From: a virus
Lineage: Duplodnaviria > Heunggongvirae > Uroviricota > Caudoviricetes
IMG/VR virus record: IMGVR_UViG_2778261543_000005
Length of the DNA stretch: 33,744 nt
Direction: 5' to 3' (one strand)
Part shown: in pieces, positions 3,031 through 10,162 of the stretch
Layout: each line of letters begins with the position of its first letter
Numbering within the stretch: position 1 is the stretch's first letter
Translations under genes and position numbers: made by a program
Notes under the pieces: generated by a model
What the model was told of the DNA's origin: nothing
Database searches by the model: none
The model's input: the letters and a program-made list of their open reading frames with translations, nothing else

Positions 3031-3165
3031 AACATATCCCTCTCTTTTTTGATGAGGTTACAACTTTATGTTTTAGCTTTCCAACACCTAAAAGTTGTGG
3101 TAAAAGTTGTTAATGTTGTATTCTTTCAGCTCGTAACAACTTAACTACCAAAAAAGGAGAAAGCT
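3031..3165. promoter_or_regulatory. Divergent promoter/operator region between repressor and cro-like genes with repeated ACAACTT / AAGTTGT half-sites
   Basis: Half-site copies at about 3060-3066, 3092-3098, 3104-3110 and 3135-3141 in both orientations, in the intergenic space between divergent regulators. Confidence 0.55.
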
Positions 3166-3436: not shown

Positions 3437-3994
3437 GTGGGCAAGCATCACTGGAAAATAGAAAAACAGCCTGAGTGGTACGTGAAAGCTGTCAGAAAAA
3501 CTATCGCGGCGTTGCCGGGGGGTTACGCTGAAGCCGCTGACTGGCTGGATGTAACAGAGAACGCTTTATTCAACCGCCTTCGTGCAGATGGCGATCAGAT
3601 TTTCCCGCTGGGATGGGCAATGGTTTTACAGCGTGCTGGTGGCACTCACTTCATTGCTGATGCTGTGGCGCAGTCTGCAAATGGCGTCTTTGTGTCTCTT
3701 CCTGACGTCGAGGATGTGGACAACGCCGATATTAACCAGCGTCTGCTGGAAGTCATTGAACAGATCGGCAGTTATTCAAAACAGATTCGTTCAGCAATCG
3801 AAGACGGTGTAGTGGAACCGCATGAGAAGACAGCAATTAACGACGAGCTGTATCTCTCAATTTCGAAGCTGCAGGAACATGCAGCACTTGTCTACAAAAT
3901 TTTTTGCATTTCAGAAAGTAATGACGCCCGCGAGTGTGCAGCTCCGGGCGTCGTGGCGTCGATTGCTTCTGGTTGTGGAGAAACTAACGCATGA
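3437..3994 (+). CDS. Hypothetical early protein at the cII/YdaT position
   Basis: In-frame GTG at 3437 with AGGAG 6 nt upstream (alternative ATG at 3404 lacks an RBS); stop overlaps the next ATG (ATGA). Function not recognised. Confidence 0.45.
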
Positions 3995-4329
3995 ACAGTT
4001 TAACAACACACTACCGTCGCTCGCAACTGATTGCGCTTCCTTTACCGGGTGGAAAAGCGAAGGTGGAGTATTGCTATGCAGTGAATGTACCAGGTGACAG
4101 GGAAATTGTAACCCACAGCTTTGCAGAGTGGGCTGTGGGTGATTTCAACCGGCAGAAGGAGACAGTCCTTTGCGACAAGTTAACCGCTGGTTCAAAGATC
4201 ACTACGGAGTGCCCGTCAGAGTCATTCGTTGGGAACCGGAAACACAACGGGTTATCTACCTTCGCGAAGGTTATGAGCATGAATGCTTCAGTCCGCTCGA
4301 ACAGTTTCGTCGTAAATTCAGGGAAATAG
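3991..4329 (+). CDS. Hypothetical early protein (112 aa)
   Basis: Translationally coupled to the upstream gene (ATGA overlap); no motif recognised. Confidence 0.4.
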
Positions 4330-4338
4330 AGGTCGGTC

Positions 4339-5280
4339 ATGAGCACTAAATTAACCGGCTATGTATGGGATGGTTGCGCTGCATCAGGCATGAAGTTATC
4401 CAGCGTGGCAATTATGGCCCGCCTGGCTGATTTCAGTAATGACGAAGGTGTGTGCTGGCCATCAATTGAAACCATTGCCCGTCAGATTGGCGCGGGGATG
4501 AGTACCGTCAGAACGGCTATCGCACGGCTGGAAGCAGAAGGCTGGTTAACGCGTAAGGCGCGTCGCCAGGGTAACCGTAATGCGTCGAATGTTTATCAGC
4601 TTAACGTTGCGAAGCTTCAGGCAGCGGCATTTTCTCAACTGTCAGATTCTGACCCGTCAAAATCTGACGCATCAAAATCTGACCCGTCAAAATTTGATGC
4701 GTCGAAATCTGGCAAAAAAGCGGGTTTTCACCCGTCAGAATCTGGCGGGGATCCGTCAGTAAAATCAAAACATGATCCGTCAGATAAAAAATCTTCTCGT
4801 CCGGACGCTTCGCAACCGGACACGCAGACGGATGGACAGGATTTTTTAACTCGCCATCCTGATGCGGTTGTATTCAGCCCTAAAAAGCGCCAGTGGGGGA
4901 CGCAGGATGATTTGACCTGCGCACAGTGGCTTTGGAAAAAAATCATCGCCCTGTACGAGCAGGCCGCCGAATGTGACGGCGAGGTGGTTCGTCCCAAAGA
5001 ACCTAACTGGACAGCCTGGGCAAACGAAATTCGCCTGATGTGTGTGCAGGATGGTCGTACTCACAAACAAATCTGCGAGATGTACAGCCGCGTCAGCCGC
5101 GATCCGTTCTGGTGCCGTAACGTGCTCAGCCCGTCGAAGCTGCGGGAAAAATGGGATGAGCTTTCCCTGCGCTTATCGCCGTCCGTAAGCACGTACACCG
5201 AAAAACGCGAAGACCCGTACTTCAAATCCAGTTACGACAACGTGGACTACAGCCAGATCCCGGCAGGATTCAGGGGGTGA
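4339..5280 (+). CDS. Replication initiator (O-like; N-terminal HTH domain) with an embedded iteron array
   Basis: RBS aaatagaggtcggtc-ATG. N-terminal HTH (GMSTVRTAIARLEAEGWL) typical of phage replication initiators. Internal DNA repeats encode the low-complexity DPSKSDASKSDPSKFDASKS stretch. Confidence 0.65.
   Translation: MSTKLTGYVWDGCAASGMKLSSVAIMARLADFSNDEGVCWPSIETIARQIGAGMSTVRTAIARLEAEGWLTRKARRQGNRNASNVYQLNVAKLQAAAFSQLSDSDPSKSDASKSDPSKFDASKSGKKAGFHPSESGGDPSVKSKHDPSDKKSSRPDASQPDTQTDGQDFLTRHPDAVVFSPKKRQWGTQDDLTCAQWLWKKIIALYEQAAECDGEVVRPKEPNWTAWANEIRLMCVQDGRTHKQICEMYSRVSRDPFWCRNVLSPSKLREKWDELSLRLSPSVSTYTEKREDPYFKSSYDNVDYSQIPAGFRG
4640..4795. repeat. Iteron array / putative replication origin inside the initiator gene
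   Basis: Tandem units tctgacccgtcaaaatctgacgcatcaaaa (4648-4677) and tctgacccgtcaaaatttgatgcgtcgaaa (4678-4707), plus further ccgtcag(a/t)aaatc copies to about 4790; contains an 11-bp inverted repeat gacgcatcaaa/tttgatgcgtc. Confidence 0.55.
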
Positions 5281-5282
5281 TC

Positions 5283-5771
5283 ATGAGTCTTTTGAATGAA
5301 GTTCAGAAATACATTGAAGCCCATCCGGGGTGTACTTCCGGAGACATTGCGGATGCTTTTGCAGGTTACTCACGGCAGCGCGTTCTGCAGTCAGCAAGCA
5401 AGTTACGTCAGAGTGGTCGTGTGGCTCACCGTTGTGAAGGGGATACACGCAGACATTTCCCGCGCCTGACTGAGAGAGCGCAGGAGGCGGAACCGCAACC
5501 AGTTCGTGAAACCAGACCTGTGCGCAATTTCTATGTCGGCACTAACGACCCGCGGGAGATTTTGTGCCTGACCCGCCAGGCTGAAGAACTGGAGTCCAGG
5601 GGCTTATACCGTCGTGCTGCAACGGTGTGGATGGCGGCATTCCGTGAAAGCCACTCCCAGCCAGAACGAAACAATTTTCTGGCGCGTCGTGAGCGGTGCT
5701 TACGGAAAAGCAGCAAGCGCGCTGCATCGGGTGAAGAGTGGTATCTGTCAGGGAATTACGTGGGGGCTTAA
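5283..5771 (+). CDS. PerC-family-like transcriptional regulator
   Basis: ATG at 5283 after aggggg. C-terminal GLYRRAATVWMAAF...FLARRERCLRKS resembles the PerC/Pch family signature. By-eye assignment. Confidence 0.5.
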   Translation: MSLLNEVQKYIEAHPGCTSGDIADAFAGYSRQRVLQSASKLRQSGRVAHRCEGDTRRHFPRLTERAQEAEPQPVRETRPVRNFYVGTNDPREILCLTRQAEELESRGLYRRAATVWMAAFRESHSQPERNNFLARRERCLRKSSKRAASGEEWYLSGNYVGA

Positions 5772-6097
5772 TGACGACGTTAACTCAATGCCAGCAGCAG
5801 GTGCTGGATATGCTGATTTCTTATCAGAAAGAACGTGGCTTCCCGCCAACCAATCAGGAGGTGGCAACCATGCTGGGATACCGTTCGGTGAATGCAGCGG
5901 TGGAGCATCTTCGTGCGCTGGAGAAAAAAGGCGTCATCACGATAAAGCGTGGCGTGGCCCGGGGGATAACGCTTCATACCGCGGTGAAGGACGACGACAG
6001 CGAGGCGGTCGGGATTATCCGCTCACTGCTTGCCGGTGAGGAAAACGCCAGGCTGCGTGCAGCCCACTGGTTACATGAGAGGGGCCTGAAAGTATGA
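5771..6097 (+). CDS. LexA N-terminal DNA-binding domain homologue lacking the S24 peptidase domain
   Basis: Aligns by eye to the LexA N-terminus (LT.RQQ.V.D.I...G.PPT..E.A..LG.RS.NAA.EHL.AL..KGVI.I..G..RGI.L); only 108 aa, no Ala-Gly cleavage site or Ser/Lys dyad. TAATG overlap with the upstream gene. Confidence 0.65.
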   Translation: MTTLTQCQQQVLDMLISYQKERGFPPTNQEVATMLGYRSVNAAVEHLRALEKKGVITIKRGVARGITLHTAVKDDDSEAVGIIRSLLAGEENARLRAAHWLHERGLKV

Positions 6098-6483
6098 AGC
6101 TTATTCTGCCTTTTCCGCCCAGCGTGAACACGTACTGGCGACACCCCAACAAAGGGGCGTTTGCTGGTAAGAGCCTGATAAGCACGGCGGGGCGAAAATT
6201 CCAGAGCGCGGCGTGCGCAGCAATAGTTGAGCAGTTACGTCGTCTGCCGAAACCAACGTCGGCACCTGCTGCAGTGGAGATCGTGTTGTTTCCACCGGAT
6301 AACCGGATCCGCGATCTGGACAACTATAACAAGGCGCTGTTTGACGCCCTGACCCACGCGGGGGTGTGGGAAGACGACAGTCAGGTGAAAAGAATGCTGG
6401 TGGAGTGGGGACCGGTTATCCCGGAAGGGAAGGTCGAGATCACTATCAGTAAGTACGAGAAAACGGCGGGTGCAGCCGCCTGA
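6094..6483 (+). CDS. rusA: Holliday junction resolvase RusA
   Basis: 129 aa; LPFPPSVNTYWRH...RDLDNYNKALFDALT matches the RusA motif pattern; ATGA overlap with the upstream gene. Confidence 0.8.
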   Translation: MKLILPFPPSVNTYWRHPNKGAFAGKSLISTAGRKFQSAACAAIVEQLRRLPKPTSAPAAVEIVLFPPDNRIRDLDNYNKALFDALTHAGVWEDDSQVKRMLVEWGPVIPEGKVEITISKYEKTAGAAA

Positions 6484-7301: not shown

Positions 7302-8297
7302 GTGACCGTGAGAGCACTACTGACCCCTGAAATTGCCCCGCGTATGGGGATCGTATTGTTCAGGCCAAGTTCAGAGCTGATGCCCCTGTTTATGCAGGGG
7401 CGTGTCCTGCTGGAGCCTGAGCCGGAGCGTTATTCATCTTTCGCCAGTGGTGCCGTTCCCGCGGCATCACAACCGCTGGCGGATGATCCTGCCGTTCGGG
7501 CCGTGTTCCGCAATGAGGCAGTGATCCGTCGTGCTGGTGGCGTGGAATGTCTTGAAAGCTGGTTACTTCGTGAAAAAGGCTGCCAGTGGCCTCATTCCAA
7601 CTGGCACAGCGAGAACATGACCACAATGCGACACGCGCCTGGCGCAATCCGTCTGTGCTGGCACTGCGATAACCAACTGCGCGATCAGTTCACGGAACGG
7701 CTGGAATCAATGGCAACGGATAACTGTGCCCGCTGGGTGTTGTCTGTTGTGCGTCGGGATCTCGGTTTTGATGATAGTCACGTTGTGACAATGCCGGAAC
7801 TGTGCTGGTGGCTGGTTCGTAATGATCTGGCGGATGCCTTACCGGAAAGCGCAGCCCGTAAGGCACTGAGATTACCGAAGCCTGTTGTGCCGTCTGTCAC
7901 CCGGGAAAGTGACCTTGTGCCTTCGGTTCCAGCCACCAGCATCATGCAGGATAAAGCGAAAAAGGTGCTGGCGCTGAAAGTGGAGCCGGAGTCGCCGGAG
8001 TCTTTTATGTTACGCCCCAAACGTCGCCGCTGGGTTAATGAAAAGTACACGCGCTGGGTTAAGACACAGCCGTGTGCATGTTGTGGAAAGCCTGCTGATG
8101 ATCCCCACCACCTGATAGGCCACGGTCAGGGGGGAATGAGTACAAAAGCGCATGACCTCTTTGTGTTGCCTTTGTGCAGAAAGCATCACGACGAGCTGCA
8201 TGCGGATACCGTGGCATTTGAAGAGAAGTATGGCTCCCAGCTGGAGCTGATATTTCGTTTTATCGACCGTGTGTTGGCAATTGGTGTGCTAGCCTGA
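7302..8297 (+). CDS. Phage early protein with C-terminal Cys/His-rich motif (DUF968-like)
   Basis: GTG start at 7302; C-terminal CACCGKP...HHLIGHG...CRKHHDELH suggests a zinc-binding, HNH-like module. Family name from memory, not searched. Confidence 0.45.
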   Translation: MTVRALLTPEIAPRMGIVLFRPSSELMPLFMQGRVLLEPEPERYSSFASGAVPAASQPLADDPAVRAVFRNEAVIRRAGGVECLESWLLREKGCQWPHSNWHSENMTTMRHAPGAIRLCWHCDNQLRDQFTERLESMATDNCARWVLSVVRRDLGFDDSHVVTMPELCWWLVRNDLADALPESAARKALRLPKPVVPSVTRESDLVPSVPATSIMQDKAKKVLALKVEPESPESFMLRPKRRRWVNEKYTRWVKTQPCACCGKPADDPHHLIGHGQGGMSTKAHDLFVLPLCRKHHDELHADTVAFEEKYGSQLELIFRFIDRVLAIGVLA

Positions 8298-8314
8298 TTT
8301 GGTGGAGAAAGTTG

Positions 8315-8680
8315 ATGCGTGATATTCAGATGGTTCTGGAGCGTTGGGGAGCATGGGCGGCGAGTGATAGTTCAGGCGTTGATTATTCACCTATAGCCGC
8401 TGGGTTTAAGGGACTTCTTCCCTATACAAGCAAGAAACGCTTGGCTTGTTCGGATAGTGATGCCTTAATTATTGAAGGTTGTCTTGCTCGTCTAAAGCAA
8501 AAAAGGCCGGACGAACATTCGCTTCTTGTTGCCCATTACCTATACGGTATCTCTAAAAGAAAGCTCGCCAAGGCTCGTAAAAAAGATGAGAAATTGATAC
8601 GTATAGAAATACAGCTAGCCGAAGGATTTATTGATGGCTGCCTTTCCATGCTAGATCTAACATTAGATTTGGACGTTTAA
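8315..8680 (+). CDS. Late-gene antiterminator Q-like protein
   Basis: MRDIQMVLERWGAWAA...IAAGFKG is characteristic of the phage antitermination Q family; sits at the end of the early operon. The track ORF begins at a TTG one codon upstream. Confidence 0.7.
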   Translation: MRDIQMVLERWGAWAASDSSGVDYSPIAAGFKGLLPYTSKKRLACSDSDALIIEGCLARLKQKRPDEHSLLVAHYLYGISKRKLAKARKKDEKLIRIEIQLAEGFIDGCLSMLDLTLDLDV

Positions 8681-8681
8681 T

Positions 8682-8705
8682 AATACGCCCCTGCATGGGC
8701 GTATT
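8682..8705. terminator. Perfect 9-bp stem hairpin (aatacgccc ctgcat gggcgtatt) between convergent Q and KAP NTPase genes; possible bidirectional terminator
   Basis: Exact inverted repeat with a 6-nt loop, flanked by A/T-rich sequence on both sides, lying between two convergent stop codons. Confidence 0.5.
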
Positions 8706-8707
8706 AT

Positions 8708-10039
8708 TTACTGGATGAATGACATTTGATTAATATATTTTATCAATAACTCTCTGGGTGTAGTACTCCAAAAATTTATGTGTTCATAATCAGTATAAAC
8801 ATTTGTGAATTTTTTAAGTTCTTCATCACTTTTAGGGGCAAATCGCTCATTAAGAGTAATACTGTCTTTAATTATTCCGAAGAATACAATGGATATTTCA
8901 GGGATTTGCGATCTTCTCTCATAAGAATAAGGTATTTCTTTTATGTTAAGCAGGTCTGCTAAATAAGATATAGATTCAGCGGTAATTTCTTGTTTTAGTT
9001 TTTCCTTGTTACCAAAGCAATGTATGAAGGCAGCTACGACAAAGATCATATTTATTAAAGGATCACTGCTTTTGTTCTCATCGTCGTTTAACAGTTGAAA
9101 AATGTTAAGATTGCGTGAAAATGTTTGTGTTTCACGTAATGATAAGTTGGTTCGTTGAATTAAATCACGGATAAAGTAACCTGATAATCTATTGATTTTA
9201 TTCAATAACCTTGTTTTTTCTACAAGGTAATCCCAATATATAACAGAGGCTTTACATACGTTGTGACCATTTATCAAACATGTATCTGGAAGCGTGATGG
9301 TATATTTTATAAACTTGTCAAGATACTTTTGTGAGTTAATGCTATAACCATAAATATGATTTATAGATGCTTTTAATTGTTCTGTGTTTGTAACTAAAAT
9401 AAAAAAGACATTATTGATGTCAAAAATGTGTTTTATTGTTTCAATGACATTTGTTGAAAAACTCGGCTTACATCGGTCTAATTCATCAATTATAATTACG
9501 ATTTTTTGATTTTTTGATATGCTTTCGATGCAGGATTTAAGTGAATTTATGTTTTTCTCTGAGTCCATATGGTCTTCAAGCAAATTTTCAATAGTCCCAT
9601 CTATTGCTGCATTGCTTGCTTTCTTCATCGCATCTTGGAATTCTTCGGCAACTTCACTAGCCTCCTGTCGTAAAAACCAACCTGCACCAGCTTTTAGTAC
9701 CGTTTTTAAACCAAAGCGAATTGCAGGAAGAGATCTCTTAATGAAGTGTTGTTTTTCTTCCTCAGGCAAAATGCTGGCAATTGCAGAGGTTATGAGAAGT
9801 AATGGAGATTCTGCATGATCCCCTTTAAAGGCATCAATATAAACAACTTTAGATTCAGTTTCTTGCTCAATAATGAGATTTTTCAGTTTGATACTAAATT
9901 CTGTTTTCCCTGTTCCCCATGCGCCGTCTATTACCAGTGGTGAAATGTCTGCCTCTGGTTTTAGCAACTTGATGATATTTTCAGCGATGTTTCTTCGTTG
10001 GAACTCGTCACGTTCAGTGAAAGATAGTGTATCTAACAT
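8708..10039 (-). CDS. KAP-family P-loop NTPase (443 aa), AT-rich cargo gene inserted antisense between Q and the late region
   Basis: Walker A VIDGAWGTGKTEF near the N-terminus, Walker B IVIIIDELDRC, overall KAP NTPase-like organisation; visibly AT-rich; opposite orientation to flanking phage genes. Confidence 0.8.
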   Translation of the reverse strand: MLDTLSFTERDEFQRRNIAENIIKLLKPEADISPLVIDGAWGTGKTEFSIKLKNLIIEQETESKVVYIDAFKGDHAESPLLLITSAIASILPEEEKQHFIKRSLPAIRFGLKTVLKAGAGWFLRQEASEVAEEFQDAMKKASNAAIDGTIENLLEDHMDSEKNINSLKSCIESISKNQKIVIIIDELDRCKPSFSTNVIETIKHIFDINNVFFILVTNTEQLKASINHIYGYSINSQKYLDKFIKYTITLPDTCLINGHNVCKASVIYWDYLVEKTRLLNKINRLSGYFIRDLIQRTNLSLRETQTFSRNLNIFQLLNDDENKSSDPLINMIFVVAAFIHCFGNKEKLKQEITAESISYLADLLNIKEIPYSYERRSQIPEISIVFFGIIKDSITLNERFAPKSDEELKKFTNVYTDYEHINFWSTTPRELLIKYINQMSFIQ

Positions 10040-10162
10040 AATATAAACCTATTAACTCCTACAGTAAAAAACGAATAATACGACTTTGGGATTAAAAATC
10101 ATTAACGCGGTCCGCAAAAATTCTTGTAATCTGTTAAGAGTGGTTACTTCGCCACACAGCTT

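Follow-up and report, generated by a model that had tools for sequence, protein, structure and literature searches.

Phage genes that encode the DNA-binding domain of LexA without its catalytic domain have a precedent in gp6 of the Bacillus thuringiensis tectivirus GIL01, a truncated LexA homologue that binds the palindrome GaCACAnnTGTGaC and turns on late promoter P3 (PMC6182141). It was the only experimentally characterized example of this kind found in the literature search. A parallel among lambdoid phages is the lambda protein NinH, a small homodimeric product of the nin region that mimics host Fis and has DNA-bending activity (PMC7166090). The present analysis concerns a gene for a protein of 108 amino acids (aa) in the Caudoviricetes record IMGVR_UViG_2778261543_000005 of IMG/VR, a stretch of 33,744 nucleotides (nt) that is referred to below as the window. 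Like gp6, the protein is a phage-encoded LexA DNA-binding domain lacking the catalytic domain, here in a lambdoid prophage context. Like NinH, but in logic and location only, it is a lambdoid nin-region copy of that part of a global host protein that binds DNA; the NinH fold (Fis-type helix-turn-helix) is unrelated, and there is no sequence relationship.

The gp6 protein also differs from the window protein in several respects. It is 66 residues long and lacks a tail, its recognition helix has diverged strongly, with Lys38 at the position of LexA Asn41, and its operator is a different palindrome, through which a late promoter is activated, rather than a LexA box. Its virus is a tectivirus, whereas the window is a lambdoid tailed prophage. 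When compared with hhalign, gp6 and the family of the window protein were related at a probability of 96.5%, with 33% identity over 63 columns, and BLASTP gave no pairwise alignment between gp6 and the window protein. Each was found to be closer to the LexA of its own host than to the other. Therefore, the two are probably independent captures; they certainly have the domain in common, but descent from one common phage gene is doubtful.

The window protein is tentatively read, with slightly less than even confidence, as a non-cleavable, delayed-early operator-binding protein that is dimerized by its tail and recognizes CTGT-like half-sites. This reading draws on the LexA fold and contact residues, the conserved tail, the position in the operon, the SOS boxes of relatives, and the gp6 and NinH precedents. 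The transcript of the gene would start at the rightward early promoter and would also carry the replication genes, rusA, and Q, with delayed-early timing, and the protein would appear after induction or infection rather than in the quiescent lysogen. A predicted C-terminal hairpin would pair two chains, giving a two-fold symmetric reading of the operator. The operators occupied would be those with CTGT-like half-sites, either SOS boxes or close variants, since Glu44 of LexA is replaced. The protein would stay on these operators while host LexA is destroyed and would act by promoter occupancy.

LexA winged helix and predicted C-terminal hairpin

The first-pass annotation had aligned the protein along the N-terminal winged-helix domain of LexA and had named a profile search as a check. 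The search supported the alignment: Pfam LexA_DNA_bind (PF01726) matched with an E value of 2.9e-19 and 69 bits (cut-off, 23.7) over profile positions 1 to 65 of 65, and a phmmer search of the PDB paired residues 2 to 69 with 1LEA, the DNA-binding domain of E. coli LexA (E = 7e-16). A structural model from AlphaFold2, based on 26 family members and with a mean predicted local distance difference test (pLDDT) score of 80, agreed with this result. Residues 1 to 68 of the model were superimposed on DNA-bound LexA 3JSO (3jso_B, Foldseek) with a root mean square deviation (RMSD) of 1.0 Å over 68 columns and 50% identity. The predicted elements of the domain were helices at residues 6 to 22, 28 to 35, and 40 to 52 and wing strands at 56 to 58 and 66 to 68. 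In comparison with E. coli LexA (1LEA, 3JSO), the protein has the same winged-helix fold, 44 to 51% identity, and identical numbering through residue 69.

The similarity to LexA runs on through the acidic linker to the cleavage-site region. The NCBIfam lexA equivalog model TIGR00498 was matched over positions 1 to 91 of 203 (70.8 bits, below the cut-off of 110.95 bits), and a match that spans the linker and the cleavage-site region suggests that the gene originated by truncation of a full lexA. In the Pfam search, no Peptidase_S24 match was observed in the 108-aa protein, which stops at residue 108. The S24 autoprotease domain is therefore missing, as had been annotated, and the accompanying claim that the protein cannot be cleaved via RecA was borne out, because the domain with Ser119 and Lys156 required for RecA-stimulated self-cleavage is lacking. 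A frameshifted full-length lexA was ruled out, since there is no Peptidase_S24 match and rusA follows directly. Residues A88-G89 (LLAGE) align with the LexA cleavage site A84-G85 (VAAGE), but the dipeptide varies among family members (AN, ER, AE, DD, and NG) and a helix is predicted for this segment, so that a functional or mimicked cleavage site there is doubtful. Unlike LexA, then, the window protein has no S24 peptidase/dimerization domain and so no LexA-type dimer, and it has Val44, a predicted C-terminal helical hairpin, and a location in a phage early lytic operon.

The label "standalone" given to the domain in the first-pass annotation was apt for the missing S24 domain, but the domain is not bare, as the AlphaFold2 model and conservation between clades both point to a C-terminal hairpin. 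It is preceded by a low-confidence linker at residues 71 to 74. The tail was compared among the E. coli/Salmonella/Citrobacter, Cronobacter, Klebsiella, Atlantibacter, Kosakonia, and Enterobacter clades, and its motif was found to be kept in clades that share only 40 to 60% identity with the window protein; A97 never varied, and L101 varied rarely if at all. The same hairpin was predicted for a Klebsiella-clade member with 41% identity. Conservation of the family across genera argues for selection. The family-wide hairpin, as modeled, is a new observation, and it probably replaces the lost LexA dimerization domain, making it a candidate dimerization module.

Weak whole-chain Foldseek matches were obtained with MecI, MntR, and MepR (E values of ∼1e-2 to 5e-2; RMSD, 6 to 12 Å). 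The likeness to MecI/BlaI, MntR, and MepR, repressors that dimerize via helices at the C terminus, is one of architecture only, with the winged helix at the N-terminal end and helices behind it; the sequences are not homologous, and the window protein has no more than two helices in its tail. The LexA(1-84) cleavage fragment is the DNA-binding domain freed of the C-terminal domain, and it retains weak operator binding. In work attributed to Little and co-workers and to Neher et al. in 2003, this fragment is said to be unstable, being a ClpXP substrate, and a poor binder without the dimerization domain. Unlike LexA(1-84), the phage protein carries its own conserved tail, which may solve both the instability and the poor binding. 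A search of representatives also revealed single chains of 140 to 165 aa with two LexA DNA-binding domains in tandem (P0133, P0156, and P0160), which could be covalent pseudo-dimers with no need of a dimerization domain.

The gene is already widely annotated, and its kind is already exemplified by gp6. At 96 to 100% nucleotide identity, it was found in 2,233 of 5,426 complete E. coli genomes (41%), as well as in SfV (orf42, "unknown"), SfII, SfIV, mEp460 ("LexA DNA binding domain protein"), cdtI, and Stx2a- and Stx2c-converting phages. A 100% identical gene in E. coli strain 165 is annotated "LexA family transcriptional regulator." PHROG 362 ("transcriptional repressor") matched residues 1 to 108, tail included, on profile positions 1 to 106 of 106 (E = 1.4e-59), and cluster representatives at 97 to 98% identity stand for 782 and 2,527 member sequences. 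Foldseek on BFVD returned many phage proteins of 65 to 90 aa labeled as LexA DNA-binding domains. A search of genome contigs with a family-alignment profile yielded mostly genuine lexA genes, and little context was gained. No experimental study of this protein was found in a full-text literature search, and the SfIV genome paper does not mention it. With carriers that include the SfV group of serotype-converting Shigella phages, the gene is thus among the commonest unstudied regulators of E. coli prophages, and the conserved helical tail and the signature at Glu44 provide concrete experimental handles.

Recognition helix and search for operators

LexA reads DNA with helix 3 via Ser39, Asn41, Ala42, Glu44, and Glu45 (PMC3091678). 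Four of these five contact residues were retained in the window protein (S39, N41, A42, and E45), and LexA H46 was retained as well; position 44 is Val. The recognition helix of the E. coli clade is identical to that of LexA at 10 of 13 residues, and the wing residues R64-G65-I66 are invariant throughout the family. Among the LexA-length proteins from the same searches (185 to 260 aa; n = 96), position 44 was Glu in 82, with the pair EE in 71 and ED in 8. In the 146 short members with a tail, position 45 was mostly Glu or Asp, with Leu, Thr, or Ile in some clades. On these alignments, the family-wide loss of the LexA contact Glu44, together with a variable residue 45, is a new observation.

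In the relatives, SOS boxes were found close to the gene. Their density in the E. coli and Klebsiella clades was 1.0 to 1.2 per 10 kb, compared with ∼0.14 expected. In the Klebsiella clade, where the gene order is dinI, an unknown gene, the LexA-like gene, a small gene, DUF968, and Q, a consensus SOS box (TACTGTTTATTTATACAGTA) was located before dinI, 508 nt upstream of the LexA-like gene, in ∼70 of 81 loci. In the prophage L171 of this clade (3714 to 4406), a second consensus box was located before the small gene that precedes dinI, and ∼70 of the 81 loci are similar. The LexA-like gene is thus part of a dinI operon headed by SOS boxes. In SfIV-type loci, a rusA pseudogene and kilA-N flank a consensus box that lies ∼790 nt downstream from where the LexA-like gene starts. 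In Shigella phage SfIV itself (L001, 4824 to 5385), the rusA pseudogene has a CGA-to-TGA change, and the box (TACTGTATTTATGAACAGTA) is at ∼5266 to 5285, ∼100 nt upstream of kilA-N. The window lacks the intergenic segment that carries this box. Another consensus box was found at a methyltransferase moron in relatives. Judged from these sites, these phages as a group are connected to the LexA regulon, but binding by the phage protein does not follow.

An unexpected, consensus-quality SOS box (TACTGTTTTTACATACAGTA) was also observed inside the coding sequence of the S24-type cI in 26 E. coli-clade loci, ∼210 nt from the start (for example, at 1332 to 1347 in L090 and at 506 to 521 in L091).

Several observations weigh against the recognition of CTGT-like half-sites. 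Position 44 was Glu in 0 of the 146 tailed members, which instead have V, A, N, T, F, or L, and the 44/45 pair differed by clade (VE, AE, ND, TD, FE, LL, and LT). The hosts, all enterobacteria, presumably share one LexA operator, so this variation argues against a family-wide role as a binder of the exact SOS box. The Klebsiella clade, with the nearest SOS boxes, lacks both glutamates (NAVLLH). When the 33.7-kb window was scanned for CTGT-N8-ACAG, as had been suggested in the first-pass annotation, the exact SOS box was absent, with 0 sites found against 0.48 expected by chance. Sites with one core mismatch numbered 17, compared with ∼12 by chance; nearly all were within coding DNA, and none had the typical AT-rich spacer. 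A search of the window for palindromes with arms of 4 to 6 and spacers of 0 to 14 revealed enrichment of only the codon-driven CAGC/GCTG class. Finally, the SOS boxes of the relatives may be merely host-LexA sites for the morons. The proposal in the first-pass annotation that the protein acts on LexA-box-like sites or modulates the SOS response or prophage induction thus drew evidence both for and against, and the interpretation given there was supported in part.

The remaining candidates in the window were considered individually. Within kilA-N, two one-mismatch sites (6905 and 6931) were put down to chance. When CTGT/ACAG half-sites were paired at spacings of 0 to 20 in both orientations, one apparently intergenic match was obtained (1086 to 1100, CTGTC-N5-GACAG), but it was rejected as an intergenic operator because it probably lies inside a short, unlisted leftward open reading frame (ORF) downstream of the predicted pL. 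This putative ORF was recognized from the sequence only, by a GAGGAGG resembling a ribosome-binding site and an ATG near 1205. The intergenic palindromes of the window were CI-type operators (AAGTTGT/ACAACTT) or terminator-like hairpins, and no candidate palindrome was detected near predicted promoters or in intergenic DNA. Since the window is without a candidate site, the targets for this phage would be on the host chromosome or on co-resident elements. The AAGTTGT/ACAACTT motifs recur at 1365 to 1412, at the predicted leftward promoter, and at 3050 to 3140, between cI and cro, and presumably serve as operators for CI and Cro in this immunity type. At positions 4 to 23, 20 bp form a perfect palindrome (TATCACTTAAATAAGTGATA) with a half-site reminiscent of lambda-type operators.

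Alternative explanations and possible roles

Less probable, but the foremost alternative, is a regulator of the gp6 type, in which the LexA domain has drifted to a private phage palindrome and switches a phage promoter, timing late genes or moron genes, for instance, and leaving SOS boxes unaffected. The palindrome binding and P3 activation of gp6 provide the precedent, and the hhalign result relates the family to it. Diversification of residues 44 and 45 between clades is what phage-specific operators would predict, and in every clade the late regulator Q is encoded a few genes downstream of the LexA-like gene. Set against this, the window offered no candidate operator, as its intergenic palindromes fell into the two types described above and no class was enriched. 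The gene is also packed between overlapping genes, and so no linked noncoding DNA could travel along with it in mosaic exchange, while its recognition helix in this clade is far nearer to that of LexA than the helix of gp6 is. With a private operator, the gene would represent a second, independent phage re-tooling of LexA's DNA-binding domain after gp6, and the 44/45 variants would form a natural series for studying the evolution of LexA specificity.

The binding of CTGT-like half-sites favored here can be carried further, to a RecA-proof stand-in for LexA that is made only after induction or infection, pairs through its own hairpin, and re-occupies the CTGT-type operators vacated by cleaved host LexA. 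Such re-silencing of the SOS response was considered unlikely because of the loss of Glu44, the variation between clades at 44/45, and the lack of boxes in this phage. If it did occur, the host SOS regulon would be shut down during lytic growth, along with LexA-controlled genes of rival prophages and colicin plasmids and the phage's own dinI and kilA-N morons. A phage-encoded SOS off-switch would then be present in ∼40% of E. coli genomes, including the Stx2a and Stx2c phages. The induction of carrier phages is SOS dependent. Should SOS boxes be bound, the protein would form a built-in, non-inducible brake on the host DNA damage response, and toxin-phage induction, prophage competition, and antibiotic-induced mutagenesis could be affected.

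An accessory DNA-binding subunit that targets or tethers a Dam-like methylase, RusA, or the DUF968 HNH protein, with the tail as the protein contact, appeared improbable. Its appeal comes from a neighborhood survey of 322 related loci in five clades. DUF968 was downstream in 262 of the 267 loci (98%) that had at least 4.3 kb of downstream DNA, rusA was the next called gene in 204 loci, a Dam-like methylase was the preceding called gene in 146, and the stop/start overlap with the next gene was conserved. The near-obligatory synteny with the DUF968 HNH gene is a new observation. The partner was inconstant, however. RusA was rejected as an obligatory partner, since it is missing from the whole Klebsiella clade, and the Dam-like methylase is missing from the window. 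DUF968 was likewise rejected as a functional partner despite its strong linkage, as it is widely present without the LexA-like gene. In records of sequenced phages, it was found 186 times, compared with 61 for the LexA-like gene, and this threefold difference makes the linkage look like shared module order. Furthermore, fused products in the databases were limited to single-member clusters resembling frameshift or gene-calling artifacts. The 186 DUF968 phages include Vibrio phages, and the DUF968 protein of the window aligns over its full length, at 25% identity, with PdcB of phage P1; an HNH-like motif is present in its C-terminal part, and it weakly matches the RecA-dependent nuclease family.

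An inert remnant of a captured lexA with no present function would fit the TIGR00498 match through the linker and cleavage-site region but is disfavored as highly improbable, given that the frame is intact in thousands of genomes, that conserved motifs, including those of the non-LexA tail, persist across clades 40 to 60% identical, and that the coupling junctions are maintained.

Gene boundaries, operon, and other features of the window

The features of the locus are listed below. For the LexA-like gene, the ORF list offered an alternative upstream GTG start at 5738. The ATG at 5771 was preferred because the N terminus that it gives, MTTLTQCQQ, pairs with MKALTARQQ of LexA and because the database cluster proteins of 107 to 108 aa start there. 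The final A of the TAA codon of the PerC-like ORF is the first base of this ATG, and at the other end, the TGA at 6095 to 6097 overlaps the rusA ATG at 6094. The claim that the gene is coupled between the PerC-like gene and rusA was thus borne out by both overlaps, and the LexA-like gene would be translated by coupling to its neighbors. The ATGA overlap, with whichever gene comes next, was present in ∼300 of the 322 loci across the five clades.

Features of the LexA-like gene and its neighbors in the window
Feature	Position	Strand	Basis or remark
LexA DNA-binding-domain protein, coding sequence including stop (108 aa)	5771..6097	+	ATG to TGA; ORF and sequence
Winged helix-turn-helix domain, residues 1-69	5771..5977	+	AlphaFold2, Foldseek 3jso_B, HMMER to 1LEA
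Recognition helix, residues 40-52 (VNAAVEHLRALEK)	5888..5926	+	Numbering equals E. coli LexA in alignments
Codon 44, GTG (Val in place of LexA Glu44)	5900-5902	+	Alignment
Predicted C-terminal helical hairpin, residues 73-103 (helices 73-87 and 93-103)	5987..6079	+	AlphaFold2 model
TAATG junction	5769..5773	+	PerC-like stop/LexA-like start codon, one-base overlap; sequence
ATGA junction	6094..6097	+	rusA start overlaps LexA-like stop; sequence
PerC-family gene, upstream	5277..5771	+	Pfam PerC, E = 7.5e-9; PHROG 1324
rusA, Holliday-junction resolvase gene, directly downstream	6094..6483	+	Pfam RusA, E = 1.2e-14
DUF968/HNH-type gene, most constant neighbor of the family	7302..8297	+	Pfam DUF968, E = 1.5e-79
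Q antiterminator gene, end of early-right operon	8312..8680	+	Pfam Phage_antitermQ, E = 1.8e-52

The rightward early operon has the order CII-like, replication protein, PerC-like, LexA-like, RusA, KilA-N, DUF968, and Q. Upstream, the opposite strand encodes a CI repressor of the S24 type, and the lysis and virion genes come after the operon. The earlier assignment of the gene to the early operon therefore held, as it is rightward and sits between the replication genes and Q. A consensus scan detected no promoter-like site and no terminator-like site on the + strand adjoining the LexA-like gene, with weak sites elsewhere in the operon. It is from this position and this lack of adjoining sites that we infer delayed-early timing and absence from the quiescent lysogen.

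Between Q and the holin gene lies a gene for a KAP-family P-loop NTPase of 443 aa (8708 to 10039, − strand), separated from the convergent Q gene by a perfect palindrome of 28 bp (8680 to 8707). In PADLOC, the protein matches the candidate defense family PDC-S20 (E = 6.9e-177), and weaker matches were obtained with PifA and QatA; the gene looks like a defense-type moron. A degenerate LexA-like box (CTATTAACTCCTACAG) was observed at 10049 to 10064, 10 to 25 nt upstream of its start codon. Its spacer contains the Shine-Dalgarno complement, so the resemblance may be due to chance; the exact form (CTGTTAACTCCTACAG) was observed in one relative (L117). Between the predicted leftward promoter/operator region and cI, an ORF of 306 aa (1441 to 2361, + strand) encodes a protein that has a BRCT domain at its C-terminal end (E = 1.4e-6) and matches PADLOC PDC-S48 weakly. 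This ORF is convergent with cI and overlaps the cI 3′ end.

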